NCBI GenBank assembly: GCA_000990355.1
Contig: LBSX01000003.1
Span: 21,489-85,488, forward strand
From: Candidatus Magasanikbacteria bacterium GW2011_GWC2_37_14
GTDB taxonomy: Bacteria > Patescibacteriota > Patescibacteriia > Magasanikbacterales > UBA922
Direction of reading: 5' to 3'
DNA: 64,000 bases
The notes beneath the pieces are model-generated. The model had not been told where the DNA came from. It ran no database searches and saw only the letters and a list, made by a program, of their open reading frames with translations. Position 1 is the stretch's first letter. Each line of letters opens with the position of its first letter. Of this stretch, positions 6,575-55,319 are shown one piece after another. The translations under genes and the position numbers were made by a program.

Positions 6575-7209
6575 GCCCTGTAGGGGCATCAGAATAATAG
6601 CCAGGCACTTTAGTGCCTGGAAAGAGATTATTATTTATAATTTAGTCCCGTAGGGACGGCACAAATATGCCAAATACCTTTTCTAATTTATTATTTCACA
6701 TTGTTTTTAGTACCAAAGAAAGAAGAAAATTATTGTCAAAAGAATTGAGAGTTCGATTATTCAAATACATGTCTGGAATAGCCGACAAAAGTAATTTTAA
6801 AATAATAAAATTAGGCGGAATTGATGATCATATCCATTTATTATTTTCATTGAGTCCTGATATGCCTGTAGCAAAAGCAGTACAATTAATAAAAGGCAAC
6901 TCATCTAAATGGTTACGTGAAAATTTTACAGATTTGGATATATTTTCTTGGCAAGTAGGTTATGGCGCGTTTACTGTCAGTAAATCACAGATTGATATTG
7001 TTCAAAAATATATTGCTAACCAAGAAGAGCATCATAAAAAAATGAGTTTTGAAGAAGAATTCGTTGAATTATTAAAAAGGAACAAAATTGATTTTGATTA
7101 TAAATATTTATTTTAGAAATGTGTCGTCCCTATTGGGACTTTTTAAAATAATAAATACATTTTCCAGGCAATAAATTGCCTGGCTACTATCTATCGTCCC
7201 TAACGGGAC
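6575..7209 (+). mobile_element. IS200/IS605-family (or REP/RAYT-like) unit: Y1 HUH transposase gene with three hairpin palindromes on each side
   Basis: Left hairpins: gccctgtaggggc (6575-6587), ccaggcac-ttta-gtgcctgg (6601-6620), gtcccgtagggac (6645-6657). Right hairpins: gtccctattgggac (7126-7139), ccaggcaa-taaa-ttgcctgg (7164-7183), gtccctaacgggac (7196-7209). The middle hairpin carries a compensatory double change (c..g to a..t) that preserves pairing. Confidence 0.6.
6667..7116 (+). CDS. tnpA: IS200-like Y1 (HUH) tyrosine transposase TnpA/RAYT
   Basis: HUH motif HIHLL; N-terminus LLFHIVFSTKERRKLL (cf. YHVVFCTKYRR); catalytic Tyr region SWQVGYGAFTVSKSQIDIVQKYIANQEEHH; 149 aa. Confidence 0.75.
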   Translation: MPNTFSNLLFHIVFSTKERRKLLSKELRVRLFKYMSGIADKSNFKIIKLGGIDDHIHLLFSLSPDMPVAKAVQLIKGNSSKWLRENFTDLDIFSWQVGYGAFTVSKSQIDIVQKYIANQEEHHKKMSFEEEFVELLKRNKIDFDYKYLF

Positions 7210-7229
7210 TTAAATAATGATTTTAAATT

Positions 7230-8907: not shown

Positions 8908-9152
8908 TATTGACAGTTTATAATTTTTATGTTATTTTTATTATGAATTACATCGCCAACGGAGGCCGTTGAGGATGAGAAAACGCAGCTGGAAGGGACG
9001 GGCTAATTCGTTGTTGGTTGACTGCTGCAACCAACACGGGGTGTCAACTTTCACTTGCAAAGAATTGCCCCCGCGGTTGCGGAAAAAAAGGAGGCAATGG
9101 CTCGCGCAGTGTGCTCGAGGCGCTAAACAACAGGATACGAGGAGGGAGGAAC

Positions 9153-9335
9153 ATGGGTCGCGGTGAACAGACCAACAAGAACCGTCGCAAGAAGGCACAG
9201 CGAGCCAAGAAGGCTCGCGAGGAACGTCGGAAGACGGGTACGCTCGGGCCGAGTAAGACTGGCACCAAGGTACGCCCATGCCCTGGGTGTGGGCAGATCG
9301 GTGGTAGCCATAAGTGGAACTGTCGTTATCGTTAG
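9153..9335 (+). CDS. small basic zinc-ribbon-like protein (60 aa) in a GC-rich island; start supported by GAGGAGGGAGG 5 nt upstream
   Basis: Sequence MGRGEQTNKNRRKKAQRAKKAREERRKT...RPCPGCGQIGGSHKWNC, with a strong SD. The upstream 210 nt are GC-rich with hairpins (gttggttg-N8-caaccaac, ccgcggttgcgg). Confidence 0.45.
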   Translation: MGRGEQTNKNRRKKAQRAKKAREERRKTGTLGPSKTGTKVRPCPGCGQIGGSHKWNCRYR

Positions 9336-9417
9336 GAGGGCAAAATGCGACAAGCACGACCACCACCTCCCTGTGTATCATAGGGGAAGGTGGAATGATA
9401 AATGGCCACAATGCATC

Positions 9418-9452
9418 ACCTTCTTTCTTTTTAAGAATATTAAAAAGAAAGA
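9418..9452 (+). terminator. 13-bp perfect hairpin (cttctttcttttt / aaaaagaaagaag) followed by a G/T-rich tract; putative terminator of the small island gene
   Basis: Perfect palindrome seen in sequence; it is followed by gtggttttttgtttttg. A similar G/T tract (ggagttttttgtttttttg) follows the next island gene. Confidence 0.4.
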
Positions 9453-9554
9453 AGGGAGAATTTGCATTGTGGTTTTTTGTTTTTGACAAGTGACTTTTTA
9501 TATGGTTAAATTATTTTAAGATTTTGCCCCACAACGGGGTTTGGGAGAATTGCT

Positions 9555-10157
9555 ATGAAGTCTGTGCTGCCTCAGAAAAGACTTGCGCCAGGAACAGGAG
9601 CTATTCTTGCTGACGGCAACTGGCGTTGCCGTTGCTTGAGCAAGAACGTTCATCACGACCTGTTCGGCTACTGCAAGCTCTGCCGTACTACCAAGCCCCC
9701 TCCGGGGAAAGTGAAAGGAGGCATTGGCACAGCCTTGGATCACTGGCGTTGGCAGTGCTCGTGCACCAACAAGGTGCACGACTGGGACATAACCAAGTGT
9801 CCTATCTGCACCTACACCAGGCCGAAAGGTCGTCCGGAGGAAGTGAAGCAGTTCGGTCAATGGCATACCCACTACACTTGGCGCTGCAAGTGTGGCAAGA
9901 AACACTGCCAGCACAATGCCTCGGTGCCTAGTTGTCAGCACTGCCACTGCTGTCGTCCCGACGAATCCAGCCAGCCACCGGAGAAGATAAAACAAGAAGA
10001 GCCTCGCGCTAGTTCGACGTCCAAGAATCAGTGGCTGGATCGCTACTCTTGGGAGTGTGCCCAAGGGCACGTAAACAGCTCTTCAGAACCAGAGTGTTGG
10101 TGCCACAGAGGGGGAAGTCGTCCTCCTTTGGCCGACAGGCCAGATCCACAGTTCTAG
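9555..10157 (+). CDS. Cys-rich protein with four tandem RanBP2-like zinc-finger motifs (W-x-C-x-C-x3-N-x7-8-C-x2-C), GC-rich
   Basis: Repeats GNWRCRCLSKNVHHDLFGYCKLC / DHWRWQCSCTNKVHDWDITKCPIC / YTWRCKCGKKHCQHNASVPSCQHC / YSWECAQGHVNSSSEPECWC. The periodic Cys pattern argues against a spurious ORF. Confidence 0.5.
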   Translation: MKSVLPQKRLAPGTGAILADGNWRCRCLSKNVHHDLFGYCKLCRTTKPPPGKVKGGIGTALDHWRWQCSCTNKVHDWDITKCPICTYTRPKGRPEEVKQFGQWHTHYTWRCKCGKKHCQHNASVPSCQHCHCCRPDESSQPPEKIKQEEPRASSTSKNQWLDRYSWECAQGHVNSSSEPECWCHRGGSRPPLADRPDPQF

Positions 10158-10323
10158 CAGCTGAGAAGGATGGTCAACATGCATAAGTCACGTTCTCCGC
10201 CCTAATCTGGGGGAGGGCGCGCAAGAAACTTCAACGTGTCGCCTTCTTTATTTCTCAATTTGGGAAGTAGAGAAGGGAGATTTTACACGTTGGAGTTTTT
10301 TGTTTTTTTGTTGTACACTAATA

Positions 10324-10394
10324 CTGTCATGCTGAATTTATTTCAGCATCTCTCTTAAAATAAAAAAGATCCTGAAATAAATTCAGGATGACAG
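10324..10394. repeat. repeat family A: double hairpin tgtcatgctgaa-ttta-tttcagcat ... atcctgaa-ataaa-ttcaggatgaca
   Basis: Five copies or arrays in the window (also 43150, 43312, 51286, 51788), always intergenic and immediately upstream of a gene start. Confidence 0.7.
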
Positions 10395-10400
10395 ATTGTT

Positions 10401-11369
10401 ATGATTGACGGTTTAAAAAAATCAATTCTAAAAACCCTCGCCTATTTTGATATTTTTAATCATCCCTTAACCAAAGAGGAACTGTTTAGATACTTACTGA
10501 TTACGGATAATTCTGATTTACGGATAAAATATACTGATTTTATAAAACAGTTAGATGGCTTGCCCGGCGAAGTCCGCCCATGGCGGACGAAGTCGGGGTT
10601 TTATTTTTTACCTGGGCAGGAAAAAAATGTAGCTACACGACAAGCGCGGGTGAAAATTTCAGAACAAAAAATGAAAATTGCCGTACGAGGAATAAAAAAA
10701 ATTGCTTGGGTGCCTTTTGTCCGAGCGGTGTTTGTTTGCAATACTATTGCCATGGGTGTGGCCGAAGAAAATAGTGACATTGATGTTTTTATAATTGTAA
10801 AAAAGAATCGAATTTTTTTGGCACGTGCTTTGGCGACGCTAATCTTAAGTTTGTTTAGAATACGTCGGACTAAAAATAAAATTAATAACAGAATTTGCTT
10901 GAGTTTTTATGTAGCCGATGACCAACTTAATTTAGAAAAAGTCGGGATAAAAGATGACGTGTATTTGATCTATTGGTTAAACAATTTAATTCCAGTGTAC
11001 GACCCAGAAGGTTTACACAAGAGTGTTGTAAAAGCCAACAAATGGGTAGAAAGATATTTAATAAATAGTCTACAGTTATTTGTAACCAGTAGACAGTGGA
11101 AAGTGGACAATGGAAAAGTTGGTAAGTTTTTTAAGAAAATTTTAGAAAAAGTTTGGGGTGCAAAGTATGGTGATTTAATAGAAGCCCAGGCCAAAGGCGC
11201 GCAATTAGCCAAAATGAAAATGAATTATAATAGTGCACAAAATATTCCTGATACTCGAGTGATTGTCTCTGATTCAATGCTTAAATTTCATGAAAATGAT
11301 CGGAGAGAAGAATATAGAGAGAAGTGGTTGGAGAAATGTAGAGAAATTTCTAATTCACCTAATTTCTAA
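10401..11369 (+). CDS. hypothetical protein, possible polymerase-beta-like nucleotidyltransferase fold
   Basis: Motif GVAEENSDIDVFIIV (G[GS]-x-D-h-D-h pattern). Contains an in-frame GC hairpin gtccgcccatggcggac (about 10573-10589). Confidence 0.4.
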   Translation: MIDGLKKSILKTLAYFDIFNHPLTKEELFRYLLITDNSDLRIKYTDFIKQLDGLPGEVRPWRTKSGFYFLPGQEKNVATRQARVKISEQKMKIAVRGIKKIAWVPFVRAVFVCNTIAMGVAEENSDIDVFIIVKKNRIFLARALATLILSLFRIRRTKNKINNRICLSFYVADDQLNLEKVGIKDDVYLIYWLNNLIPVYDPEGLHKSVVKANKWVERYLINSLQLFVTSRQWKVDNGKVGKFFKKILEKVWGAKYGDLIEAQAKGAQLAKMKMNYNSAQNIPDTRVIVSDSMLKFHENDRREEYREKWLEKCREISNSPNF

Positions 11370-11375
11370 TGTCAA

Positions 11376-12797
11376 ATGAAATTTTCAATATCTAATATTT
11401 TGAATATTTTGTTAAAAGTTTTTCTTTTTCTCTTGCCTTGGCAAACGATTTGGATTTATCGTGAGTCTTTTTTGGGTGGTGTAAAATGGGAATATGGCAC
11501 GTTAGGGTTTTATGCTACAGAAATTTTGTTATGGATTATTGTGGTGGTATTTATGATTTGGTATATAAAAAAGTTTAGAGTTCAGAGTTCAAAGTTCAAA
11601 GTTCGTGTGACTAAAGATAGAGTATTTTTGTTTTCAGTCTTATGTCTTATATCTTATGCCATTATTTCTGCTTTCTGGGCGTCGGATAGAGATTTGGCTT
11701 GGCAACAGGGTTTACGAATTTTGGAAATGTTTTTATTATTTTTTGTTTTATATTTAGGACCAGTGGATTTTAAATTAACAGTAAAATGGTTGGTCTTAGG
11801 AGCAATAATCCCTAGTCTTTTGGGTATTTGGCAATTTTTAACGCAGACAACTTTTGCTTCTACTTTGTTTGGTTTAGCCGTTCATCCTGCTTGGCAATCA
11901 GGCACCTCAATTATTGCTAGTGAAACTATTGGCCGATGGCTTCGGGCTTATGGACCTTTTAGTCATCCCAATGTTTTTGGGGGGTATTTAGTGATTGTTT
12001 TGTGGCTGTCATTGCGAGGAGGAGCTCGCGCGACAACGAAGCAATCCCCTGGTGATTTAGAAAAAATAAAAAATATTAATTTACTTGGGATTGCTTCGTC
12101 AGCCGATGCGAATCGGCTTCCTCGCAATGACATGTTTTTCTATCTTACATCTTATGTCCTATGTCTTACATCTTTGTTTTTTACTTTTAGCCGTTCGGCT
12201 TGGTTGGCACTGTTAATTGGATTAGTTGTTTTATGTTGGCGAAACCTCTCCCAACCAGGGAAAGCCTGCCTGCCGGCGAGGCAGGGGTGGGGTCTGTTTT
12301 TAATTATGCCAGTGGTTTTATTTTCTTTGTTGTCCTTTATTTTTTTTCCACTTCTCCAAACTCGTACTAGTAATTCTACTATTTCCGAAACACGTTCAAT
12401 AACCGAAAGAACTACTGGCTATAGAGAAGCTTGGCAAATGATTAAACAAAATCCTGTTTTGGGAGTAGGAGCAGGTAATTACACGGTTGCCTTGTGGAGA
12501 ATGGATAAGTGGCGACCAGTTTGGGAATTACAGCCAGTACACAATGTGCTGTTATTATTTATTGCAGAGTTAGGTTTTGTAGGTGTTGGGTTGTTTTTGT
12601 TAGTAATATTAACATTTTTCAGTTTTCAGTTAACAGATAGCAAATATCAACTACGTTGTTATCTGTTATCTGTTATCTGCATTTTGCCCTTACTGTTATT
12701 TGATCACTACCTCTATTCCTCTTACTTTGGTTTGATGTTAAGTACAGTATTTTTTGCTTTATTTTTAAAAAGTGACACACAGTCTCTCCCCAGTTAA
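11376..12797 (+). CDS. O-antigen ligase (Wzy_C) family polytopic membrane protein
   Basis: At least 10 TM segments; Wzy_C-like motif HNVLLLFIAELGFVGVGLFLL. Carries two GC-rich in-frame insertions and three 7-nt tandem repeat tracts. Confidence 0.6.
   Translation: MKFSISNILNILLKVFLFLLPWQTIWIYRESFLGGVKWEYGTLGFYATEILLWIIVVVFMIWYIKKFRVQSSKFKVRVTKDRVFLFSVLCLISYAIISAFWASDRDLAWQQGLRILEMFLLFFVLYLGPVDFKLTVKWLVLGAIIPSLLGIWQFLTQTTFASTLFGLAVHPAWQSGTSIIASETIGRWLRAYGPFSHPNVFGGYLVIVLWLSLRGGARATTKQSPGDLEKIKNINLLGIASSADANRLPRNDMFFYLTSYVLCLTSLFFTFSRSAWLALLIGLVVLCWRNLSQPGKACLPARQGWGLFLIMPVVLFSLLSFIFFPLLQTRTSNSTISETRSITERTTGYREAWQMIKQNPVLGVGAGNYTVALWRMDKWRPVWELQPVHNVLLLFIAELGFVGVGLFLLVILTFFSFQLTDSKYQLRCYLLSVICILPLLLFDHYLYSSYFGLMLSTVFFALFLKSDTQSLPS
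12008..12131. repeat. in-frame GC-rich palindromic element (gtcattgcgagg ... cctcgcaatgac) inside the O-antigen ligase gene
   Basis: Its right arm cttgggattgcttcgtcagccgatgcgaatcggcttcctcgcaatgac is the exact reverse complement of the left arm of the copies in tsaC and ksgA. Translated as LRGGARATTKQSPGDLEKIKNINLLGIASSADANRLPRND. Confidence 0.7.
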
Positions 12798-26234: not shown

Positions 26235-27386
26235 ATGGAAATACATGAGTTGGTACAAAGTTTAGTAGAATTAAATAAAAAACTTGTAAATTTACAAGTG
26301 ATGTTAAAGTTATCGGAAAAAGAAAAAGAAATAAAAATTTTAGCAGAAAAAATGAATGAAAATGGTTTTTGGAACAACCAAGAAGAAGCAACCAAAGTAA
26401 GCAAACGTTTAAGTTATTTGCAAAATGAACAAACAGAATGGAAAAAATTATCTAGTCAAGTTGTTGATTTGTTGGAAATGGCCAAACTAGATGAAGAAGA
26501 TAAAGATGTAAATTTACGTGAGGAATTGGAAAAACAATACAAAATTATAAATAAAGCAATCAATCATTTGGAATTTAATACTCTAATGAGTGAAAAATAT
26601 GATGACCACAATGCGATTGTGGCCATTCACTCGGGAAGTGGTGGAACCGAAGCACAAGACTGGGCCGAAATATTACTTCGCATGTATTTAAAATATTCAG
26701 AAAACAAGAATTGGAAAATAATGATGATTGATGAAACACGCGGGCAAGAGGCGGGAATAAAATCAGCAGTGTTTAGAGTTGAAGGTGACCCTTCGGCTAG
26801 TGCTCCCCTCGGCGTGAGCTCGGGCCGAACGCAGGGCGGGTTTGTTTATGGACATTTAAAATCCGAACACGGTACTCATCGCTTAGTTAGAATTTCTCCA
26901 TTTGACGCAGAAAAAATGCGTCATACTTCTTTTGCTTTAGTAGAAGTAATTCCGGAGCTGGAGGAAAGCGAAAGTTTACAAATTGATGCTAAAGATTTGC
27001 GTGTAGATACTTTTATGTCTGGTGGTAAGGGTGGACAATCTGTTAATACTACTTATTCCGCAGTACGTATAGTTCATATTCCCACAGGTACCACTGTACA
27101 ATGTCAAAATGAACGCAGTCAACAACAAAACAAAGAAATGGCATTAAAAATTTTACAATCCAAACTACAAAAAATAAAAGATGAGGAAGAAGATAAAGAA
27201 AAACAAAAATTACGTGGAGAATACAAGAGCCCAGAGTGGGGTAGTCAAATTCGTTCTTATGTACTCCACCCATATCACCTAGTAAAAGATTTGCGTACAG
27301 ATTATGAGACGACCGATGACAAAAGTGTTTTGGAAGGGAATTTGGATGAGTTTGTGGAGAGTTATTTAAGGTGGAAAAAGAAATAA
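26235..27386 (+). CDS. prfB: peptide chain release factor 2, encoded without the programmed +1 frameshift
   Basis: SPF tripeptide (RISPFD), GGQ (SGGKGGQSVN), single uninterrupted ORF. Contains an in-frame GC-rich insertion (D PSASAPLGVSSGRTQGG F) at 26788-26840. Confidence 0.85.
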   Translation: MEIHELVQSLVELNKKLVNLQVMLKLSEKEKEIKILAEKMNENGFWNNQEEATKVSKRLSYLQNEQTEWKKLSSQVVDLLEMAKLDEEDKDVNLREELEKQYKIINKAINHLEFNTLMSEKYDDHNAIVAIHSGSGGTEAQDWAEILLRMYLKYSENKNWKIMMIDETRGQEAGIKSAVFRVEGDPSASAPLGVSSGRTQGGFVYGHLKSEHGTHRLVRISPFDAEKMRHTSFALVEVIPELEESESLQIDAKDLRVDTFMSGGKGGQSVNTTYSAVRIVHIPTGTTVQCQNERSQQQNKEMALKILQSKLQKIKDEEEDKEKQKLRGEYKSPEWGSQIRSYVLHPYHLVKDLRTDYETTDDKSVLEGNLDEFVESYLRWKKK

Positions 27387-27387
27387 A

Positions 27388-27500
27388 ATTTTCAATGATC
27401 AATTTACAATTTACAATAAATTATCAATTTTCAATTACCATTAGTGATTGAAAATTGTGTCATTGTAAATTTATTGAAAATTGAAAAATGAAAATTGGTA
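27388..27500. repeat. repeat family C: ~110-bp AT-rich palindromic element (arms tcaatttacaatttacaataaatt... / ...aatttattgtaaattg...)
   Basis: Copies at 27388, 31151, 49590/50005 (split by a gene) and 55201; all intergenic and just upstream of gene starts. Confidence 0.65.
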
Positions 27501-27503
27501 ATT

Positions 27504-28196
27504 ATGAACATTATTGAAAAAGAAAAAGCATTGGATTACTTGCGATCTGGTAAAATAATTATTTTTCCTACCGAAACCTCGTACGGTCTTGGTTGTGATG
27601 CGACCAATCAACAAGCAGTAGATAAAATTTTTAAAATAAAAGGCCGTCGTGGTGACAAACCTCTTTTAGTAATAGTGCCGACAATAGAAATGGCCAAAGA
27701 ATATTTGGAGTGGAATGATTTGTTGGAAAAGATTGCGACAAAATATTGGTTTACCCGCCGAAGCCCTAGCGAAGGCGGGCCTGGTCCACTGACTGTGGTG
27801 GGCATGTCATTGCGAGGAAGCCGGTTCGCATCGGCTGACGAAGCAATCCCAATGGGATCGCCACACCCCTTACTGCGTGGGGTTCGCGATGACAGACTCG
27901 CCAGTGGCGTGGTGTCTAAAGATAAAACTATTGCCGTTCGTGTTACTAATGCCGAGATACCAAAATATTTATCCGAACAATTAGGCAGGCCAGTAGTAGC
28001 GACTTCGGCAAATTTGGCAGATCTAGGTGATGTTTACAGTGGCGAAGAGCTAATAAAAATGTATGAAGGACGAGAAATTCAACCAGATGCAATTATTAAT
28101 GCTGGAATTTTACCATCAAATCCACCAACGACGATTGTAAGTGTAGTTGGGGGAGAGTTGAAAGTATTACGGCAGGGTGAAGTGAAAGTCGTTTAA
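27504..28196 (+). CDS. tsaC: L-threonylcarbamoyladenylate synthase TsaC (YrdC/Sua5 family); ATG at 27504 preferred over the TTG at 27495
   Basis: LRSGKIIIFPTETSYGLGCDATN...KIFKIKGRRGDKPLLV...GPGPLTVV; carries the in-frame palindromic insertion. Confidence 0.75.
   Translation: MNIIEKEKALDYLRSGKIIIFPTETSYGLGCDATNQQAVDKIFKIKGRRGDKPLLVIVPTIEMAKEYLEWNDLLEKIATKYWFTRRSPSEGGPGPLTVVGMSLRGSRFASADEAIPMGSPHPLLRGVRDDRLASGVVSKDKTIAVRVTNAEIPKYLSEQLGRPVVATSANLADLGDVYSGEELIKMYEGREIQPDAIINAGILPSNPPTTIVSVVGGELKVLRQGEVKVV
27806..27893. repeat. in-frame GC-rich palindromic element (gtcattgcgaggaagccggttcgcatcggctgacgaagcaatccca ... cgcgatgac) inside tsaC
   Basis: Near-identical to 31577-31681; encodes MSLRGSRFASADEAIPMGSPHPLLRGVRDD between the conserved PGPLTVV and IAVRV segments. 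Confidence 0.65.
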
Positions 28197-28199
28197 CTG

Positions 28200-28320
28200 A
28201 ATCCTCCTGGAGTTTATCCCGTACCAGGTTACGGGGAAGGAGGAGTACCCCGACTGCGACGTCGGGGGCAGAAGGCGTTCGTTTTCCTCCCCTTTATAAG
28301 GGGAGGATTAAGGAGGGGTA
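28200..28320. repeat. cluster of GC-rich hairpins (ccccgactgcgacgtcgggg; cctcccc-tttataa-ggggagg) upstream of the DUF559 gene
   Basis: Palindromes seen directly; mirrored by a similar cluster downstream of the gene. Confidence 0.5.
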
Positions 28321-28322
28321 GT

Positions 28323-28688
28323 ATGACAGATTTATACAACAAAAAAGAATATACATTCATTAGACGTAAACTAAGAAAAGAAACACCTAAAGGGGAACAA
28401 ATACTCTGGCAGAAATTAAGACGTAAAACATTGGGTTGTAAATTCCGTCGTCAGTATGGTATTGGTAAGTATGTAGTGGACTTTTACTGTCAAGAATTAC
28501 GTTTAGCAATAGAAGTAGATGGTATTACGCACGAAGATAAAGCAGACTACGAAAAAGAAAGAAATCAATTTTTAAAATGTAAAAACATAAAAGTATTACA
28601 TTTTCGTAGTGAAGAAATATTTTACAATTTAGATAACCTTGTTGAAGGCTTGTATAATCTCTGTGAAGAACTTAAAACTAAACTTTAA
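28323..28688 (+). CDS. DUF559 (Vsr-like endonuclease fold) protein
   Basis: ILWQKLRRKTLGCKFRRQYGIGKYVVDFYCQELRLAIEVDGITH matches the DUF559 core; strong SD AAGGAGGGG. Confidence 0.7.
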   Translation: MTDLYNKKEYTFIRRKLRKETPKGEQILWQKLRRKTLGCKFRRQYGIGKYVVDFYCQELRLAIEVDGITHEDKADYEKERNQFLKCKNIKVLHFRSEEIFYNLDNLVEGLYNLCEELKTKL

Positions 28689-28689
28689 A

Positions 28690-28795
28690 CCTTACCCCCA
28701 CCTAGCCTCCCCCTTATAAAGGGGGAGGAAACCACCCCGTCTCCGACCTGCGAAGGTCGGAGACACCCCTCCTTACGAAGGAGGGGTCAGACACT
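28690..28795. repeat. cluster of GC-rich hairpins (cctccccc-ttataaa-gggggagg; gtctccgacc-tgcgaa-ggtcggagac; cccctcctt-acgaa-ggaggggt) downstream of the DUF559 gene
   Basis: Three perfect or near-perfect palindromes at 28706-28728, 28739-28764 and 28766-28786. Confidence 0.5.
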
Positions 28796-30040
28796 GTGTG
28801 TGATTTATTACACTATAAAAATGTAAACCTTGTGTTAGAAAATAGAACACAAAATTTAAAAAAAAACTTTGGTCGCATGTTTTGGATGCAAGCTTTGCAA
28901 AATATTAGTGCTTCTAATTTGATAATTACTTTATTTTATTTGCACCGTGGGTTATCTTTGGCCCAGGTTTTTTATTTATCCATTATTTGGTCTATTACCA
29001 ATTTAGTATTTGAAGTTCCTTCTAGTTATTTAGCAGATTATTGGGGTCGTAAAAAAACTCTTATTTTGGGTATTGTTTTAGGCGGTTTTGGTGATCTTTT
29101 GCTTATTTTTTCACATAGTTTTGCTTTGTTTGCCATTGCCATGTTTTTTATTTCTTTGTGCTTTGCCATGTTTTCGGGAACAGACGAAGCATTGGTTTAT
29201 GATACTGCCAAAGAATTAGGTAGTGAAGAGAAAACTTTAGGTCATTTGGGAAGATATTTTTCTGCACGTACTTTTTTAAAAATTGGTATGCCACTATTAG
29301 CGGCTTTTTTGGCTAAAGATTTATTTGATTGGCAGTTTGTTTCGTTGATTTTGGTTGATTTGACAGCGGGTATTTTATCTTTATTGTTTGCTTGGTTTTT
29401 AGTAGAACCAAAACATTATTTTAAGGTAGAAGAACATGAAGGTCATATCTTAAAAGATGCAGTTAAATTAATTAAAACAGATACAGTGTTGGTGAAAGCT
29501 TTGTTAACTCGCACTGTATTTTTTATTGCCATGTTCATTCTTTGGCGTTTTCATTTACCTTACCTGTTAAGTATTGGTATTACGATATTGCCAATTGGCA
29601 TTATGTGGTCAACAGTACATTTAGTTAATTTTTTGATTAATGTATTTATAATTAAAAAAATTGCTCATAAAAAAGTAATGTCCCGAATAAATAATATTAA
29701 TTTTATAGTTGTTTTAGTAATTTTGCTTGAAGTGGTCTTTATATATTTTGGATTTAATAAATGGTGTATACTATTGGGGTTGGGTTTAGTTTTCTTTTTT
29801 GAATCTTCTCGTTGGCCACTATATTCTCAATTGTACAATGAAAGAAGCTATTCTTTTAATCGTGCTACCACACTTTCATTGGCTAATTTTTTGAAAAGTG
29901 TTTTGGATATACCAGTGTTGTTTGTTGGTTCGATTCTAGTGGGTGTTAGTCCTTTTTATCCTTTTGTATTTTCTTTTATTTTAGTTTTGATGTTTTATGT
30001 TGGAGCAAGATTTTCCAAAAATGATATCCGCACTGTCTAA
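28796..30040 (+). CDS. MFS-type transporter-like polytopic membrane protein (true start probably the internal ATG near 28877)
   Basis: About 12 hydrophobic segments; motif YLADYWGRKKTLILG (MFS loop 2-3-like). Confidence 0.45.
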   Translation: MCDLLHYKNVNLVLENRTQNLKKNFGRMFWMQALQNISASNLIITLFYLHRGLSLAQVFYLSIIWSITNLVFEVPSSYLADYWGRKKTLILGIVLGGFGDLLLIFSHSFALFAIAMFFISLCFAMFSGTDEALVYDTAKELGSEEKTLGHLGRYFSARTFLKIGMPLLAAFLAKDLFDWQFVSLILVDLTAGILSLLFAWFLVEPKHYFKVEEHEGHILKDAVKLIKTDTVLVKALLTRTVFFIAMFILWRFHLPYLLSIGITILPIGIMWSTVHLVNFLINVFIIKKIAHKKVMSRINNINFIVVLVILLEVVFIYFGFNKWCILLGLGLVFFFESSRWPLYSQLYNERSYSFNRATTLSLANFLKSVLDIPVLFVGSILVGVSPFYPFVFSFILVLMFYVGARFSKNDIRTV

Positions 30041-31151
30041 AAACATATATCTAATAATTTTTTTGGTTATTTCATTAATGGCTGGATTTTTGATAACTTG
30101 GCAGTGGCTAGAAACAAGCACTGCTCAGTCATTGGCCATATTATCTTTAGAAGAAATCAAGTCACCACTCCGAGCCAAGGCAGATTTGAAAACTGTAAAA
30201 GCATTATATTTAACAGCTTATTCTGCTGGTAACCCAAAGAAATTAGCTGAGATTATTGATTTAATAAACAAAACCGAGTTGAATGCGGTAGTAATTGATA
30301 TAAAAGATTATTCGGGAAAAGTATTATACAATAGTAATTTGGAATGGGTAAAAAGGTTTGAAGCTAGAGAAAACCGTTTGGGAAATGTACGGGAAGTAAT
30401 TCAAAAATTACATGATAATAAAATATATGTAATTGCTCGTCTTACTGTTTTTCAAGACCCACTATTGGCAAGTAAAAAACCTGAGTGGGCCATAAAATCC
30501 AAAAACGATGGATTGTGGCAAGATAACAAAGGTTTAAATTGGGTAGATCCTACCCGTGTAGAAGTTTGGAATTATAATTTGGCCATTGCCAAAGAAGCTA
30601 TTGGTTTTGGTTTTGATGAAATTAATTTTGATTATGTGCGTTTTCCTTCGGATGGAGATATGAGTTTGGTAGTTTATAATAATGGCGATGAACCAAAATA
30701 TCAAACAATGAAGCGTTTTTATACTTTTTTACGTGAGCATCTAAATAATTATCCAGCTTGGATTTCACTAGATATGTTTGGTTATGTTATGGAACGTACT
30801 GATGATTTGCGTATTGGTCAACGCTTGGTAGACGCGGTAGATTCGGCAGATTTTATTTGTCCAATGATGTACCCTTCACACTATTCTAGAAATTCTTTTG
30901 GGGTAGAAAAACCCGCCGAAATTCCTGGAATAATTATTGATAATGGTATGAAAAAGGGAATGCCGACTTTTGTTAATAAGCGCGCCAAGGTACGTCCTTG
31001 GTTACAAGCTTTTGATTTGGGGGCAGTGTATAGCGATGGCATAAAGATTCGCGAGCAAATTGATGCAGTAGAAAAATATAGTGATGCGGGGTGGCTTTTG
31101 TGGAATGCCAGTAATAGATATACGTCAGCTGGATTAAAGATAGAGTGGTAA
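30021..31151 (+). CDS. putative TIM-barrel glycoside-hydrolase-like protein (GHL/DUF4015-like) with an N-terminal anchor
   Basis: N-terminal TM; NAVVIDIKDYSGKV..., GLNWVDP, FGFDEINFDYVRFP are reminiscent of GHL15-type proteins. This is recall-based and the confidence is low. Confidence 0.35.
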   Translation: MISALSKNIYLIIFLVISLMAGFLITWQWLETSTAQSLAILSLEEIKSPLRAKADLKTVKALYLTAYSAGNPKKLAEIIDLINKTELNAVVIDIKDYSGKVLYNSNLEWVKRFEARENRLGNVREVIQKLHDNKIYVIARLTVFQDPLLASKKPEWAIKSKNDGLWQDNKGLNWVDPTRVEVWNYNLAIAKEAIGFGFDEINFDYVRFPSDGDMSLVVYNNGDEPKYQTMKRFYTFLREHLNNYPAWISLDMFGYVMERTDDLRIGQRLVDAVDSADFICPMMYPSHYSRNSFGVEKPAEIPGIIIDNGMKKGMPTFVNKRAKVRPWLQAFDLGAVYSDGIKIREQIDAVEKYSDAGWLLWNASNRYTSAGLKIEW

Positions 31152-31260
31152 TTTTCAATAATCAATTTACAATTTACAACAAATTTTCATTTAGATAATT
31201 TTCAATGTCAATGATAATTGAAAATTGGTTATTGATTGAAAATTGTGAATTGTAAATTGA
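31151..31260. repeat. repeat family C copy
   Basis: taattttcaataatcaatttacaatttacaacaaatt ... aattgtgaattgtaaattga. Confidence 0.65.
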
Positions 31261-31277
31261 TAATTATTTATTATTTT

Positions 31278-32264
31278 ATGCGTCTTACTCCAACAAAATT
31301 AAAAGAGCTTTGTGAGCAATATGATCTTTCTCCAAGCAAAAAATATGGTCAAAATTTTTTGATTCAAGAACATCCAATTAAAAAAATGTTTGAAGCGGCA
31401 GAAATAAATAAAAACGACCTAGTAGTTGAAATTGGACCAGGTTTTGGAATATTAACTTTTGCTTTGGCAGAAAAAGCCAAAAAAGTAATTGCTTTTGAAA
31501 TTGAAAAAAAGATTGAAAATTATTGGCAAGAAAATAAACCAGAAAATGTGGAAATTATTTGGGGGAATGCGCTCATGTCATTGCGAGGAAGCCGATTCGC
31601 ATCGGCTGACGAAGCAATCCCAAGTTTAGTGAAGAGTGCAAAGGGATTGCCACACCTCGCTCGGGCGGGGTTCGCAATGACAGGTTACAAAGTAATCGCC
31701 AATGTACCGTATCAAATTACTTCGGATTTAATTAGAACTTTATTGGAATTAGAAAATAAGCCTGAGAGCATTACGATTATGGTGCAAAAAGAAGTTGCTG
31801 AGCGTATTTGTGCCCAAGCTGGAGAAATGAGTTTGTTGGCAATTTCAGTACAATATTATGGCGAAGTAAAAACTGTGGCAATTGTAACACGAGGAAATTT
31901 TTGGCCAGAACCAAAGGTGGATTCGGCAATATTGCACATTAAAGTGAGACAACAACCCCCTTGTTCCCCCTTTATTAAGGGGGAAACCAACAAACCCTGT
32001 TTAATTCCCCCCTTGGTAAAGGGGGGTAGGGGGGATATTGACCAAGAACAATTTTTTAAGATTGTTAAAACTGGTTTTTCACAAAAGCGTAAACAATTGT
32101 GGAGCAATCTAAGCAAAGGTCTTAAAATAGAGGGTGAAATGGTAAAAAAAGTGCTTTTGGAAGTGGTTGGCAATGATAAAGTAAGAGCAGAGGAATTGGG
32201 AGTAGAGGAGTGGAAAGAAATTACCACGCGGTTATCCACAACGTCAAAAGAAAAATTGCTGTAA
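31278..32264 (+). CDS. rsmA: 16S rRNA (adenine1518/1519-N6)-dimethyltransferase RsmA/KsgA with two in-frame GC-rich insertions
   Basis: YGQNFL, VVEIGPGFGILT, ANVPYQITS, PKVDSAIL, FSQKRKQL. Confidence 0.8.
   Translation: MRLTPTKLKELCEQYDLSPSKKYGQNFLIQEHPIKKMFEAAEINKNDLVVEIGPGFGILTFALAEKAKKVIAFEIEKKIENYWQENKPENVEIIWGNALMSLRGSRFASADEAIPSLVKSAKGLPHLARAGFAMTGYKVIANVPYQITSDLIRTLLELENKPESITIMVQKEVAERICAQAGEMSLLAISVQYYGEVKTVAIVTRGNFWPEPKVDSAILHIKVRQQPPCSPFIKGETNKPCLIPPLVKGGRGDIDQEQFFKIVKTGFSQKRKQLWSNLSKGLKIEGEMVKKVLLEVVGNDKVRAEELGVEEWKEITTRLSTTSKEKLL
31577..31681. repeat. in-frame 105-bp GC-rich palindromic element (gtcattgcgaggaagccgattcgc ... ggttcgcaatgac) inside rsmA
   Basis: Terminal inverted repeats gtcattgcg / cgcaatgac; the length is exactly 35 codons; inserted between the GNAL and ANVPY segments, where homologues have about 15-20 aa. 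Confidence 0.7.
31955..32036. repeat. second in-frame GC-rich insertion in rsmA containing hairpins ccccc-tttatta-aggggg and cccccc-ttggtaaa-gggggg
   Basis: Encodes PPCSPFIKGETNKPCLIPPLVKGGRG; the hairpin motif resembles those flanking the DUF559 gene. Confidence 0.5.
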
Positions 32265-42102: not shown

Positions 42103-42116
42103 CAACCACCATTAAG

Positions 42117-42156
42117 AGATCCCTCGACTTCGCTTCGCTACGCTCGGGATGACAGT
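42117..42156. repeat. repeat family B (gtcatcccgagcgtagcgaagcgaagtcgagggatctc, minus orientation)
   Basis: Copies at 54526-54564 (degenerate) and 54580-54618; shares the gtcatcc ... ggatctc termini with family A. Confidence 0.6.
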
Positions 42157-42162
42157 GTAAAA

Positions 42163-42196: not shown

Positions 42197-42309
42197 GCTT
42201 TGAATAAAATTATTTTCATTCAAAGTGTGAGTGGTGGAGAGGCCGACCATCCACACCTCCGCGTATCGAGGACGCAGAGAGAGAGGAAGGGAGAGAACGA
42301 GACCGGAGG

Positions 42310-42888
42310 TCACGGGCGCTGGAGGACGATGGGGGTGTCGCCGATGTAGGAGCCCCAGAGCTTGAGCTTGATGACTTCTTCGAGCGAGGCGAAGATCTTC
42401 GGGTTGTTGAGTGGCCCTTGGAGGACCTCCCATTCGCCCTTCTTCGCGAAGAAGTAGACACCGAAGTTCTCGGTGCTGGCGTAGCAGTAGCTGGGGTCCT
42501 TCTCGTAGTCGACGAACTGGTTGATGGTGTAGACGTTGCCGTCGTCATCCACCCAGTTGCCTTCTCGCGACGCCAGCGGCGCGCAGTCGGTCGTCGTGAC
42601 CTCGTCGGTGAGCACCTCTTCGGCGCTCGTGGCGTCCGGCGAGTCGTCCGGGGGGTTGGCGATGCAGGAGTCGCCGCTCTTGATCATGTGCCCGGGGCAC
42701 GTGAACGGGAGCTGGTTGTCCTGCGAGACGTCGTCCTCGAGAATCGAGGTGTCGCCGCCGATGGTGTCGGCGGTGTTGATGACGTCGCCGTCGTAGCTGT
42801 CGCCACCACCACAGGCGGGGACGAAGAGGGCCACCATGAGAGTGACCCAGAAGGAGAGAACCAGCGAGTTGCGGGTCGTCGTGAGCAT
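42310..42888 (-). CDS. GC-rich (~60%) lipoprotein; start at the internal ATG with SD AGGAGG
   Basis: MLTTTRNSLVLSFWVTLMVALFVPAC: signal plus lipobox Cys; SD taggaggcgcacc immediately before the ATG; base composition is atypical for the window. Confidence 0.55.
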   Translation of the reverse strand: MLTTTRNSLVLSFWVTLMVALFVPACGGGDSYDGDVINTADTIGGDTSILEDDVSQDNQLPFTCPGHMIKSGDSCIANPPDDSPDATSAEEVLTDEVTTTDCAPLASREGNWVDDDGNVYTINQFVDYEKDPSYCYASTENFGVYFFAKKGEWEVLQGPLNNPKIFASLEEVIKLKLWGSYIGDTPIVLQRP

Positions 42889-43149
42889 GGTGCGCCTCCT
42901 AGCGCGTTGTTGTTGCCCAGAATAGGGATTTAGTAAATCCACATTCTGGGCAAGCACTAGCAAGGCATAACCATGGGCCTCTTAATTCCACCACACCCTA
43001 AACCACAAGGGTTCAGGGTAAAATTTTTAAAGAGCATTATCCATTTATAGTATAGAACATTAAAACCTTGTCTGTCAAGACAAGGGAAACGATTATAGCA
43101 TATTTTAGCCTTTTTGTCAAGGGTATGCGGTGGATAAACTGTGCACCGT

Positions 43150-43227
43150 TGTCATGCTGAACTCGTTTCAGCATCCCTTACTTATTTAATATTGCCAGGG
43201 GATCCTGAAATAAATTCAGGATGACAG
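43150..43227. repeat. repeat family A copy
   Basis: tgtcatgctgaactcgtttcagcat ... gatcctgaaataaattcaggatgaca. Confidence 0.7.
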
Positions 43228-43311
43228 ACAATGTGGATATCTATATTTTTTCTTTAAACAAACAAAAAAATGTGTTATAATGTTTGTAGTTTAGCATGTA
43301 GTGTAAATCAA

Positions 43312-43406
43312 CTGTCATGCTGAATGTAATTGTCATGCTGAACTTGTTTCAGCATCCCGTGAGATCCTGAAATAAATTCAGGATGACAGCCAAGTTCAGG
43401 ATGACA
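43312..43406. repeat. repeat family A copy with extra half-sites (ctgtcatgctgaa; ttcaggatgaca x2)
   Basis: Immediately upstream of ORF 43420, whose ATG lies in a degenerate half-site (gtcATGctcaaattc). Confidence 0.7.
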
Positions 43407-48648: not shown

Positions 48649-49585
48649 TTTTTGGTTTAATTATCAGTTACAAAATTACCACGAAGTTGTTGATTCTTTT
48701 GGTTTGTTAGAAAACAAACGTTTGGAAATTATTTCAAAAATTGGCAAGTTGGGTGAAAGGATTTTTTTATATGTTGATTTTATTTCTAAAAAAATATTAC
48801 AACACCAAATTAAACCCGAAGTAAGTTTTGAAACCAATCTTATTAAATATTTGGATTTAGGATTATTAAATAATTTTATTAACGATCCTTTAAACAAAGA
48901 AAATCGCGATTTGTTTTCCGAACAGCTTTTGCTGGTTTATTCGGCTTTGGGCGGGGCTTTGCCTATAAATGCTTATTCGGTAGAAGAAATGTTACAAATC
49001 AAATCAGCCGAATATTTATATTATGATGATAATATTTTTGTGGGTACTTTACGTTATATTTTTAGTGATTTGGATGTATTTTATAAATATTTACCAAGTA
49101 TTAGCGACTATTTGTTTAGAGATGGCCAAAATTCTATTAAACAAAACTTTGATTGGCACACAGCTTTTATTTATTCGGCTTTAATTAATTTTTGCTGGTC
49201 AAGTTTTTGGTTTTTAAAAAGTGAAGAACAAGAAAATTTGCTTAAAAATTATTTTTATACGGCCATTGTTGCCGGAGTGCCGGTAAAAATTATTTTAGAT
49301 CGTTTTTTGGCTGTGGGCACTGCAGAAGAAAAAGTACGTTGTCAACAATTGTTTGCCAATGGTCTTGAAAATAATTTAGAAGAAGTTCCTTTGAATGGAG
49401 ATTTTACCGAGTGGAAAAAATTATTAGCTATTATCCGTGGTTTTTCGGTGCGAATTAAGGGTTCAAATTCTGGTTTTGAACAAGAAGAATTTTTAAAGGA
49501 ATTTTATCAAAATCAACCAGGGAGAGACGTTTATCGCGGTTGGCTACGAGAAGTTTTGAATATAGTGTTTAGTTTGGAAAAGTAG
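48611..49585 (+). CDS. hypothetical protein, paralogue of 47302..48648
   Basis: See previous entry; overlaps it by 38 nt (the start may be the ATG at 48632). Confidence 0.5.
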   Translation: MKNHLKNMELKNNFWFNYQLQNYHEVVDSFGLLENKRLEIISKIGKLGERIFLYVDFISKKILQHQIKPEVSFETNLIKYLDLGLLNNFINDPLNKENRDLFSEQLLLVYSALGGALPINAYSVEEMLQIKSAEYLYYDDNIFVGTLRYIFSDLDVFYKYLPSISDYLFRDGQNSIKQNFDWHTAFIYSALINFCWSSFWFLKSEEQENLLKNYFYTAIVAGVPVKIILDRFLAVGTAEEKVRCQQLFANGLENNLEEVPLNGDFTEWKKLLAIIRGFSVRIKGSNSGFEQEEFLKEFYQNQPGRDVYRGWLREVLNIVFSLEK

Positions 49586-49589
49586 TACA

Positions 49590-50062
49590 ATTATCAGTTT
49601 TCAATTTACAATTTACAATAAATTTTCAATTAAATAATTTTCAATGAATAAAAGTTCTAACAACTATGATTTGGAAGAACGTACAGCAGTATTTAGTGGA
49701 GAGATAATTAAATTTTGTAGAAGTCTAAAAGAAGATAATGTTACTAGACCGTTGATAAATCAGTTAGTGCGTTCTGGAACTAGTATCGGGGCAAATTATT
49801 GTGAAGCTAATAACGCGAGTTCAAAAAAGGATTTTCAAAATAAAATATTTATTTGTAAAAAAGAGGCACAAGAGACCAAATATTGGTTAAGGACACTTTC
49901 TACCTGTTGTCCAGAAGAAGTAGAAAATTTAAGGAAACTTTGGAAGGAAACACAAGAATTATTGATGATATTTCAAAAAATTGTGAATACTTTAAGAAGT
50001 AAATGATAATTGATAAATTGAAAATTTATTGTAAATTGTAAAATGGTTATTGTAAATTAAAC
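49590..50062. repeat. family C palindromic element split by a four-helix-bundle gene (left arm 49590-49646, right arm 50005-50062)
   Basis: The arms match the empty copies C1, C2 and C4; the 4HB ATG sits in the conserved centre aattttcaATG. Confidence 0.6.
49644..50006 (+). CDS. four-helix-bundle protein (23S rRNA-IVS protein family)
   Basis: LVRSGTSIGANYCEANNASSKKDFQNKIFICKKEAQETKYWLRTL. Confidence 0.7.
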   Translation: MNKSSNNYDLEERTAVFSGEIIKFCRSLKEDNVTRPLINQLVRSGTSIGANYCEANNASSKKDFQNKIFICKKEAQETKYWLRTLSTCCPEEVENLRKLWKETQELLMIFQKIVNTLRSK

Positions 50063-50066
50063 AATT

Positions 50067-51285: not shown

Positions 51286-51342
51286 TGTCATGCTGAACTA
51301 GTTTCAGCATCCCAGGAGATCCTGAAATAAATTCAGGATGAC
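51286..51342. repeat. repeat family A copy
   Basis: ctgtcatgctgaactagtttcagcatcccaggagatcctgaaataaattcaggatgaca. Confidence 0.65.
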
Positions 51343-51350
51343 AAAACAAT

Positions 51351-51787: not shown

Positions 51788-51925
51788 TGTCATCCTGAAT
51801 TTATTTCAGGATCTCCTGTTAGCATTAAAAGTGTTGGGGATGCTGAAATGGTACTTGTCCTGAATTTATTTCAGGATTCAGCATGACAATTGCATTCAGG
51901 ATGACAACCAAGTTCAGCATGACAA
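51788..51925. repeat. array of family A half-sites (tgtcatcctgaa-tttat-ttcaggat; atgctgaa; gtcctgaatttatttcaggat; ttcagcatgaca x2; ttcaggatgaca)
   Basis: Six or more copies of the 12-nt half-site TGTCATSCTGAA or its reverse complement within 140 bp, upstream of the VirB4 genes. Confidence 0.65.
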
Positions 51926-51959
51926 ATAGAACGTTTTGTGTTAAAATGACAAGTGTAAT

Positions 51960-54623: not shown

Positions 54624-55199
54624 ATGTATATGCTTACACTACGTCAAAGAATTTTTGCTTACATTGGTATTTTTGTTGGTTTGGTGGTGGTTTTTTTGTT
54701 GGCTTATTTATTTATCAACAATAGTGGCGGGGTACGTGATTATGTAACAGAAAAAGGCACAAAAATTTTAAATATTAAACCCACAGGAGAGCAAACACCG
54801 GTGGCTACTACTACTCCAAACGTGGTAAAAGCCGACCCGCTTACTCCCGAGATTTATACCAAACAATTGTCACGAATTTTTGTCGAGCGTTTTAGTAGTT
54901 ATTCCAACCAAAATGATAATCTTCATATTAGCGAAGTAATTCCACTTTGTACCGAAACAATGGTTGCTTGGCTAAAGACACAAAATTTAACTAGTAGTTT
55001 GGATTATGCGGGGGTAACTACCAGAGTAATTGCCAGTAATGTTAGTAAAATTACTGCTACCTCGGCTACCGTGGAAATTCAAGTACAACAAGAAATAGAA
55101 AATAAAGCGGGAAAACAAGTGGTACAAAAAGATGGGCGTGTGGAACTTTTAAAAGTAGGCAATGATTGGAAAATAGATGGGTTGTATTGGCAAAAATAG
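54624..55199 (+). CDS. membrane-anchored hypothetical protein (start chosen downstream of the repeat)
   Basis: N-terminal TM IFAYIGIFVGLVVVFLLAYLFI; last gene of the T4SS-like cluster. Confidence 0.45.
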   Translation: MYMLTLRQRIFAYIGIFVGLVVVFLLAYLFINNSGGVRDYVTEKGTKILNIKPTGEQTPVATTTPNVVKADPLTPEIYTKQLSRIFVERFSSYSNQNDNLHISEVIPLCTETMVAWLKTQNLTSSLDYAGVTTRVIASNVSKITATSATVEIQVQQEIENKAGKQVVQKDGRVELLKVGNDWKIDGLYWQK

Positions 55200-55200
55200 T

Positions 55201-55312
55201 TTAATTTTCAGTAATCAATTTTCAATTTACAAAAAATTTTCAATTAAATAATTTTCAATGTTATTGATAATTGAACATTGTAAATTTATTGAAAATTGTG
55301 AATTGTAAATTG
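55201..55312. repeat. repeat family C copy
   Basis: tttaattttcagtaatcaattttcaatttacaaaaaatt ... aattgtgaattgtaaattgg. Confidence 0.65.
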
Positions 55313-55319
55313 GCAATTT

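Follow-up and report, generated by a model that had tools for sequence, protein, structure and literature searches.

What is a GC-rich palindrome doing in the middle of rsmA, the gene for the 16S rRNA dimethyladenosine transferase of Candidatus Magasanikbacteria bacterium GW2011_GWC2_37_14, and what kind of element is it? The window analysed here, a 64-kb stretch of this metagenome-assembled genome (MAG; contig LBSX01000003.1, positions 21,489 to 85,488), has a GC content of 36.9% and carries three copies of the element, with GC contents of 46-60%. A sequence-only reading of the window had reported three copies inside three different open reading frames (ORFs) and had compared them to the Rickettsia palindromic elements (RPEs). 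All three were found where it had placed them, in three Pfam-confirmed genes and free of stop codons in the frame of each host. At a probability of about 0.62, we regard them as gene-less, non-autonomous copies of a variant of the palindromic repeats of the CGTC-tagged REP (repetitive extragenic palindrome) or SRM (Ssn-related motif) kind, and as miniatures of a unit that elsewhere carries a GIY-YIG nuclease gene. Each copy of this element, here called ATTGC-type, is an imperfect palindrome of two inverted arms around a short variable loop, with the GTC tag of each arm facing outward. The elements and their host genes are as follows.

31577..31681, + strand: ATTGC-type palindromic element (tags-outward dimer) in rsmA, 105 nt.
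27806..27893, + strand: ATTGC-type element in a tsaC-like gene, 88 nt, right terminus CGCGATGAC.
12008..12131, - strand: ATTGC-type element in an O-antigen-ligase-like gene, 124 nt, in the opposite orientation to the other two copies; its central loop is AT-rich.
31278..32264 (ORF from 31236), + strand: rsmA/ksgA (16S rRNA dimethyladenosine transferase), KKQ27985.1, Pfam RrnaAD 6.7e-43, 328 aa from the annotated ATG.
27495..28196, + strand: Sua5/YciO/YrdC (TsaC-like) gene, KKQ27981.1, Pfam Sua5_yciO_yrdC 1.3e-38, 230-233 aa.
11376..12797, + strand: O-antigen-ligase-related membrane protein, KKQ27975.1, Pfam Wzy_C 1.2e-21, 473 aa.

The three copies share the termini (T)GTCATTGCGAGG / CTCGCAATGAC(A), and their left arms, counted with the shared CAT before GTC, are 98-100% identical in pairwise comparison across 50-52 nt. 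The left arms of the ligase and rsmA copies are 100% identical over 52 nt while their right arms differ, and the tsaC left arm departs from that of rsmA by one A/G difference. As we judge from these alignments, such identity among the left arms cannot be chance in 64 kb, and the exact 12-mer GTCATTGCGAGG occurs four times in the window, every time within the three elements. The length of 105 bp given earlier for the rsmA copy was confirmed, and this copy is the only one whose length is divisible by three. The terminus CGCAATGAC, which had been claimed for all copies, does not hold for the tsaC copy, which ends in CGCGATGAC instead. An independent assembly from ENA (L122) is 99.989% identical to the window across 17.5 kb, with two mismatches of which one is a single-nucleotide polymorphism in the terminus of the rsmA element. 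As this assembly contains the same rsmA and tsaC elements, an assembly artefact, one of the outcomes on which the sequence-only reading had staked itself, is excluded. Positions 1-894 of the same contig, which is otherwise identical, could not be aligned to the window upstream of 24808, in the 3' part of a repeat-rich giant gene of 3962 aa; this mismatch could be strain variation or a repeat mis-assembly in the giant gene. A candidate fourth copy at 34540, with a terminus containing one mismatch, was rejected as not being an element. Rfam searches with the three elements matched no family at gathering or permissive thresholds, and a literature search with the terminal 11-mer returned unrelated primer matches only.

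In every one of the three copies, G|TCA TTG CGA GG (S-L-R-G ... PRND) is a frame without a stop on either strand, the sole frame of which this is true, and all three host genes read the element in it, including the inverted copy in the ligase gene (LSLRG...LPRNDM). The Wzy_C domain begins at residue 260, and this copy, translated as LSLRGGARATTKQSPGDLEKIKNINLLGIASSADANRLPRNDM, is upstream of it. The copy had been described as being in the opposite orientation, which is correct, and as being translated in another frame, which is not; because the termini are palindromic, the inverted copy falls into the equivalent SLRG frame. Palindromic termini and one doubly open frame account for why the element can persist in a gene in either orientation. 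The encoded peptides differ between host genes, and an example of a predicted read-through peptide is SLRGSRFASADEAIPSLVK. In the JGI assembly the ligase ORF is split, and an effect of the element was rejected as the explanation since the break lies downstream of the element.

RsmA homologues of related Magasanikbacteria are typically about 270-295 aa long, compared with 328 aa here. In an alignment of 16 sequences, the segment between GNAL and YKV comprises 37 aa in the window protein and 11-12 aa in its relatives, and a second insert, PPCSPFIKGETNKPCLIPPLVKGGRGD, lies between two domains. TsaC homologues, mostly about 200-207 aa long, match the window protein in two blocks that skip residues 86-132, and in a comparison with seventeen homologues the loop that holds the element measures about 31 aa here and 8-12 aa in the others. 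The gaps fall at the same positions when solved structures are compared (B. subtilis KsgA, 6ifs; threonylcarbamoyl-AMP synthase, 9d3h). In the AlphaFold model of RsmA the mean confidence score (predicted local distance difference test, pLDDT) is 81.9 and values below 50 are confined to the two inserts, at residues 108-133 and 227-252; in the model of TsaC the mean is 89.5, with a drop to 45-55 only at residues ~106-135 and values below 50 at 122-130. Both the placement of the rsmA and tsaC peptides in loops that are shorter in homologues and the predicted location in loops thus hold, as confidence is low only across the inserted segments, and the roughly 20-40 added residues are probably disordered in these models. 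The relatives of RsmA and TsaC do not carry the segments as conserved protein sequence, and because orthologues exist without them, the rsmA and tsaC segments are secondary insertions into variable loops.

The word insertion needs a correction in detail for rsmA. In the closest RsmA relative (L121, 83% aa identity), the site reads GCTCTCA, 33 nt of AT-rich loop and TATAAAGTAAT; in the window, it reads GCGCTCA, 108 nt and TACAAAGTAAT. On this comparison the rsmA element is not a clean insertion: it stands in place of about 30 nt of native loop and makes the site 75 nt longer. A target-site duplication was sought at all three sites and none was found. The flanks read CA|...|G at all three sites, the flanking bases at rsmA being host-derived; a target preference for CA...G is possible but unproven. 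The same RsmA loops hold other GC-rich inserts in other lineages (P0021, P0034), and an element of the ATTGC type, LSLRGPRHGGGRSNPVVKQHWIAALPRVARND, is present independently in one TsaC homologue (P0245).

The layout of an arm is Y-GTC-ATTGCGAGG-(nested hairpin)-GAC-GAAGCAAT-CCC. The base before GTC is T (TGTC) in all six arms of the window, and in the left arms CCC(A) comes after GCAAT. Each arm has five continuous base pairs (ATTGC/GCAAT); the interior of the left arms is 21-22 nt with a nested hairpin, and the interiors of the right arms differ. GTC-ATTGC...GCAAT-C is kept in every left arm and in all right arms, save for a one-base change in the tsaC right arm (ATCGC/GCGAT). The central loops range from a few to about 40 nt, and the elements end in perfect terminal inverted repeats, TGTCATTGCGAGG / CCTCGCAATGACA. 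Along the rsmA copy, the parts assigned from the sequence are as follows.

31577-31588, + strand: left terminus, GTCATTGCGAGG, followed by AA.
31591-31606, + strand: nested hairpin, GCCGATTCGCATCGGC, followed by T.
31608-31621, + strand: box GACGAAGCAATCCC.
31622-31642, + strand: loop of 21 nt.
31643-31650, + strand: box GGGATTGC.
About 31654-31671, + strand: second small nested hairpin.
31672-31681, + strand: right terminus, TCGCAATGAC.

The fold predicted for single-stranded DNA (ssDNA) or RNA has an outer stem of 10-12 bp, an inner stem of 8-13 bp and two small hairpins. As RNA, the three elements fold at -43 to -63 kcal/mol with z-scores of -3.7 to -8.7, and as ssDNA with z-scores of -2.6 to -7.9; the values for the rsmA element are -49.8 kcal/mol (z -5.6) as RNA and -29.3 kcal/mol (z -6.2) as ssDNA.

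These features place the element close to a known superfamily. CGTC-tagged REPs are defined by an unpaired CGTC or TGTC tag (CCTC being allowed), a stem that starts with AT and a CCA-like tail of 3 nt; the stem is 8-9 bp and the loop 4-5 nt, with other loops occurring as exceptions in Bradyrhizobium (Di Nocera 2013, BMC Genomics 14:522, PMC3733652). They mostly form tags-outward (HH) dimers, intragenic units in frame encode about 20-40 residues, and neither a dedicated transposase nor a RAYT (REP-associated tyrosine transposase) flanked by CGTC repeats was found (PMC3733652). The superfamily includes RPE-4 and RPE-6 of R. conorii and dRS3 of Neisseria, and was reported from five phyla, Patescibacteria not being among them (PMC3733652). 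The window element shares the TGTC tag, the AT-start stem and a C-rich tail (CCC, against the consensus CCA), and all three copies are tags-outward, intragenic dimers with no transposase adjoining any of them. ATTGC-type units are also present in Bradyrhizobium in our scan of species-representative genomes.

RPE-1 and its relatives, attributed to Ogata and colleagues (2000 and 2002), are reportedly palindromes of ~100-150 nt that sit in frame in genes of reduced genomes, encode surface peptides and leave the fold intact. The window elements resemble the Rickettsia elements in being palindromic, repeated and in frame within ORFs whose RsmA and TsaC homologues are without the segment. They differ in host lineage and in consensus, and the link to RPE-4 and RPE-6 runs through the classification of Di Nocera and not through a sequence comparison. 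As RPE-4 and RPE-6 belong to the CGTC superfamily, whose tag, stem, tail and dimer layout the window element shares, the likeness is probably more than an analogy. Repetition, an open frame, absence from RsmA and TsaC orthologues and the superfamily features together support the description of the copies as RPE-like, in-frame palindromic elements. The accompanying statement that such elements had not been described for genomes of this kind stands in part: no description of palindromic elements of this kind in the Candidate Phyla Radiation (CPR) or Patescibacteria was found in the literature searched, but elements of this kind, also within genes, are known from other phyla.

In order to place the element beyond the window, the pattern GTCATTGCGAGG-N10-40-GAAGCAATCCC was searched in one genome per bacterial or archaeal species, yielding at least 120 loci. 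Among the matches listed there are roughly 20 phylum-level groups, including Chloroflexota, Pseudomonadota (with Bradyrhizobium), Bacteroidota, Ignavibacteriota, Acidobacteriota, Nitrospirota, Omnitrophota and Verrucomicrobiota, as well as six Patescibacteria MAGs. Within these same listed matches, GTC is preceded by T in 76 units and by C in 45 (121/128), an inverted partner lies within 220 nt of 76/128 units with a median dimer of 90 nt, the interior is usually a small hairpin with many different stem sequences, and the internal boxes are as conserved across phyla as the termini. A scan of viral contigs gave 34 stretches with the repeat; these contained no close homologue of the GIY-YIG nuclease described below, which is uninformative on a vector. 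In-frame cases in other genomes were accepted only where the genome was low in GC or the gene was confirmed by Pfam, as counts of spanning ORFs in high-GC genomes are unreliable owing to long chance ORFs. Four such cases are Pfam-confirmed.

L049, Parcubacteria GW2011_GWB1_42_6: leucyl-tRNA synthetase (LeuRS) with three inserts, two of ATTGC type and one canonical NTS-like (VIPAQAGIQ).
L012, another Patescibacteria MAG: RsmA with a unit in a loop different from that of the window.
L123, low-GC metagenome contig: LeuRS fragment, MSLRGSRRTSADEAIP.
L041, Bacteroidetes: histidine kinase with a dimer inside HATPase_c.

Two further arrangements were seen. At L129 (4992-5101) and L136 (941-1051; minus strand, reverse-complement coordinates), ATTGC-type dimers lie within a further palindrome, GGCCTTGCC ... 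GGCAAGGCC, and look as if inserted into a terminator-like hairpin. In L101, L120, L045 and L054 (uncultured bacterium, Chloroflexus MAGs), half units form head-to-tail tandem arrays and not inverted dimers, with a constant spacer of ~14 nt and a period of about 48 nt.

A model for a candidate partner of the element comes from Neisseria, where SsnA, a GIY-YIG nuclease of 94 aa assigned to cd10448, binds and cuts the NTS, a CGTC-type repeat that contains dRS3, exclusively in its ssDNA form (Chenal 2025, Nat Commun 16:2388). Cleavage depends critically on the GTC that lies 5' of the palindrome and binding on the C that lies 3', and the cut falls a few nucleotides upstream of the motif (Chenal 2025). 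Motifs lie near 71% of Ssn homologues, the SRM-ssn-SRM layout was called "identical to" an insertion sequence (IS), motif-rich genomes include Rickettsia and Wolbachia, and 2% of NTS lie within genes in Neisseria (Chenal 2025). ATTGC-type arms likewise keep GTC immediately 5' and C immediately 3' of the palindrome, are spread across phyla, and in other genomes flank a single-domain GIY-YIG gene of ~95 aa. Among the cross-phylum matches listed, locus L090 holds such a gene of 95 aa directly flanked by ATTGC-type units, and homologues of this nuclease are about 80% identical across several phyla. Units stand on both sides of the 95-aa gene, tags outward, in 5/7 independent contexts; the other two have an upstream unit only (1/7) or no unit (1/7). 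The distance from the upstream unit to the ATG is 16-47 nt, and that from the stop to the downstream unit is 1-34 nt.

As the same two arms, tags outward, bracket the 95-aa gene elsewhere, we read the window copies as miniatures of the GIY-YIG unit, to which they would relate as a transposable element of the miniature inverted-repeat type (MITE) relates to an IS, either relying on a nuclease encoded elsewhere or being relics of past activity. On the model of SsnA, the arm would have to be ssDNA for the nuclease to bind it, and the cut would fall a few nucleotides 5' of the GTC tag. Repair of the break with another copy as template, the step that we infer, would then spread or homogenise the arms without a target-site duplication; it fits the lack of target duplications, the loss of native DNA at rsmA and the left arms that are identical between rsmA and ligase next to right arms that differ. 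Genic copies would survive only where they fall in a tolerant surface loop, are read in the SLRG frame that is stop-free in both orientations, and change the total length in a way that keeps the frame, and each survivor would add about 20-40 probably disordered residues.

Several observations weigh against this reading. The window arm, with a 5-bp stem and a nested-hairpin interior, is unlike the 8-9 bp stem and 4-5 nt loop of the CGTC-tagged REPs, from which the host phylum, Patescibacteria, and the intragenic position of all three copies also set the elements apart. A single arm folds weakly by itself (-9 kcal/mol, z -1.7). The published SRM pattern HGTCWYN(0-2)YYVSBRHN(0-5)WNVSBRGN(0-2)RNCYNB gave 0 matches in the window and its elements, with the canonical NTS control being found, and a search by motif and tblastn yielded no GIY-YIG homologue in the 64-kb window, so that on the pattern, the nuclease gene and the exclusively intragenic position the elements differ from the Ssn/SRM system. 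The flanked GIY-YIG clade was assigned by Pfam PF01541 and gene architecture only, not by cd10448, and NCBIfam and PDB gave nothing finer for it than the level of the GIY-YIG superfamily or UPF0213-like proteins. Mobility of SRM/CGTC repeats is not known to have been demonstrated; a dedicated transposase was looked for and not found (Di Nocera 2013), and a role in the control of transformation, not transposition, was proposed for them in Neisseria (Chenal 2025). The exact subfamily of the window was found in only 14 stretches in the metagenome scan, mostly intergenic, and translation through the elements is something that we infer from the open frame.

Could the segments instead be functional at the RNA or protein level, as a regulatory structure, a translational pause or an adaptive module kept by selection? 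The very stable RNA structure inside ORFs and the other inserts in the same RsmA and TsaC loops of other lineages (P0021, P0034, P0245) would fit this, but both orientations occur, Rfam gave no match, the peptides differ between hosts and are predicted to be disordered, the closest RsmA relative is without the insert, and the same DNA is mostly intergenic elsewhere. We therefore consider a selected function unlikely. A classical MITE, that is, a deletion derivative of an IS with a DDE transposase whose 12-nt terminal inverted repeats serve for recognition and which moves by cut-and-paste, would account for the perfect terminal repeats, the small size and the lack of coding capacity, and TG...CA ends are common in DDE elements. 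MITEs such as Nezha, Correia/NEMIS and those of Coxiella are also small, hairpin-forming and repeated, and some are read through in frame. They have target-site duplications and a DDE parent, however, and neither is seen here: all three sites are free of a duplication and native DNA is lost at rsmA, no transposase gene with such ends was seen in the window or in the 7 gene-carrying units, which hold the GIY-YIG gene instead, and recognition of the terminal repeats alone does not predict internal boxes that are conserved like the termini across phyla. An origin of this sort is quite improbable. REPINs mobilised by a RAYT, an IS200/IS605-like tyrosine transposase, as is the case for GTAG-tagged REPs, have in common with the window elements a hairpin-doublet architecture, the ssDNA-hairpin logic, the lack of target duplications and a small, non-coding, repeated form. 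Yet the tag here is YGTC and not GTAG, no RAYT flanked by CGTC repeats was found (Di Nocera 2013, PMC3733652), the gene between the arms is a GIY-YIG gene, and no Y1 transposase was noticed in the window in a search that was not exhaustive, so that RAYT mobilisation is very improbable. Finally, it is scarcely credible that the segments are ancestral protein sequence lost in relatives or products of chimeric assembly, even though MAG assemblies can collapse repeats and GC-rich islands exist elsewhere in the window, given the same sequence in an independent assembly, the elevated GC content, near-identical arms in three unrelated genes and dozens of homologues without the segments.

Returning to the reading of the copies as gene-less miniatures of the GIY-YIG unit, a bolder extension of it is that the ATTGC-type unit, with or without the 95-aa gene, forms an active class of mobile element that is not formally recognised, IS-like, with an Ssn-type ssDNA nuclease as its sole protein, spread across phyla and in the CPR forced into surface loops of RsmA, TsaC and LeuRS. 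We hold this to be possible but doubtful. If it is true, the forcing into loops of housekeeping enzymes would follow from the little intergenic space that streamlined CPR genomes have. The kind of element and its intragenic habit in other phyla were already known; what is new is the host lineage, a composite subtype that current search definitions miss, and the reading of the dimers as miniatures of the GIY-YIG unit.

The window also holds other REP families, listed here with their surroundings.

10325..10393, no strand assigned: short TGTC-tagged REP dimer, intergenic, with 8-bp stems ATGCTGAA / ATCCTGAA, 5-nt loops and tails CTC/CTT.
43150..43406, no strand assigned: two short TGTC-tagged REP dimers and extra tags, intergenic, upstream of the ORF at 43420, ssDNA fold z -4.6.
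51286..51343, no strand assigned: short TGTC-tagged REP dimer that fills the spacer from the stop at 51281 to the ATG at 51351.
51788..51931, no strand assigned: short TGTC-tagged REP units in a cluster that follows immediately on the stop at 51782.
42116..42157, - strand: single unit of a third subtype (CTGTC-ATCCC...GGGAT-CTC), intergenic, with a long interior.

The short TGTC repeats, with 8-bp stems and 5-nt loops, satisfy the published stem and loop sizes of CGTC REPs. In this small sample, the ATTGC-type copies are intragenic in 3/3 cases, whereas the short-type dimers are intergenic in 5/5.

Other GC-rich sequences are read through as well. A GC-rich palindrome of the form CCCCCTT..AAGGGGG makes up the second in-frame insert of rsmA (31960-32046, SPFIKGE..PPLVKGGRGD), and palindromes of this form flank both sides of a gene for a DUF559 (Vsr-like) endonuclease (28215-28296, 28323-28688, 28689-28798); the two may be a second nuclease-plus-repeat pair. 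The DUF559 gene, which lies beside tsaC, was considered as an insertion or deletion relative to L121 and rejected, since it is present at the same place in both, with similar palindromes, and is uninformative on mobility. At 27753-27780, a 30-nt GC hairpin, cccgccgaagccctagcgaaggcggg, puts the 10 aa FTRRSPSEGG inside the conserved YW|PGPLT motif of TsaC, where homologues have nothing; the ATTGC-type element occupies the loop that follows. GC-rich hairpin islands are also read through at 10545-10605 (in a 322-aa protein), 12234-12305 (in the ligase gene) and 26774-26855 (in prfB, GDPSASAPLGVSSGRTQGG), and it seems that this genome commonly carries GC-rich inserts in frame. Two islands of 56-63% GC in this 37% GC genome, at 9065-10248, with a Cys-rich ORF of 200 aa (9555-10157) that has repeated W-x-C-x-C motifs, and at 42221-42928, with an ORF of 217 aa on the minus strand, could be foreign DNA or chimeric assembly. 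An Rfam match to Acido-Lenti-1 RNA at 7164-7210 has 38.8 bits, barely over the gathering score of 37. A further intergenic repeat is AT-rich (AATTTTCAATGATCAATTTACAATTTACAAT, also seen as its inverse); it occurs upstream of several genes (27366-27504, 31129-31266, 49568-49704, 50004-50066, 55182-55319) and could represent one more repeat family or a module with promoter or regulatory function.

With these elements, selfish palindromes in coding genes, seen before in Rickettsia and a small number of other bacteria, are extended to the Candidate Phyla Radiation, where they affect translation-related enzymes of very small genomes, namely RsmA, a TsaC-like protein and, in a sister lineage, LeuRS. 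Inserts of this kind lead, in the annotation of many genomes, to inflated protein lengths and to spurious "hypothetical proteins" (SLRG.., ..LAMT and ..PRND peptides), and a widespread repeat subtype is missed by the current SRM search pattern. The ATTGC-type arm could offer a new recognition sequence for ssDNA-cutting tools, and together with the highly conserved GIY-YIG clade these arms form a testable pairing for the question of whether Ssn-type nucleases mobilise their repeats.

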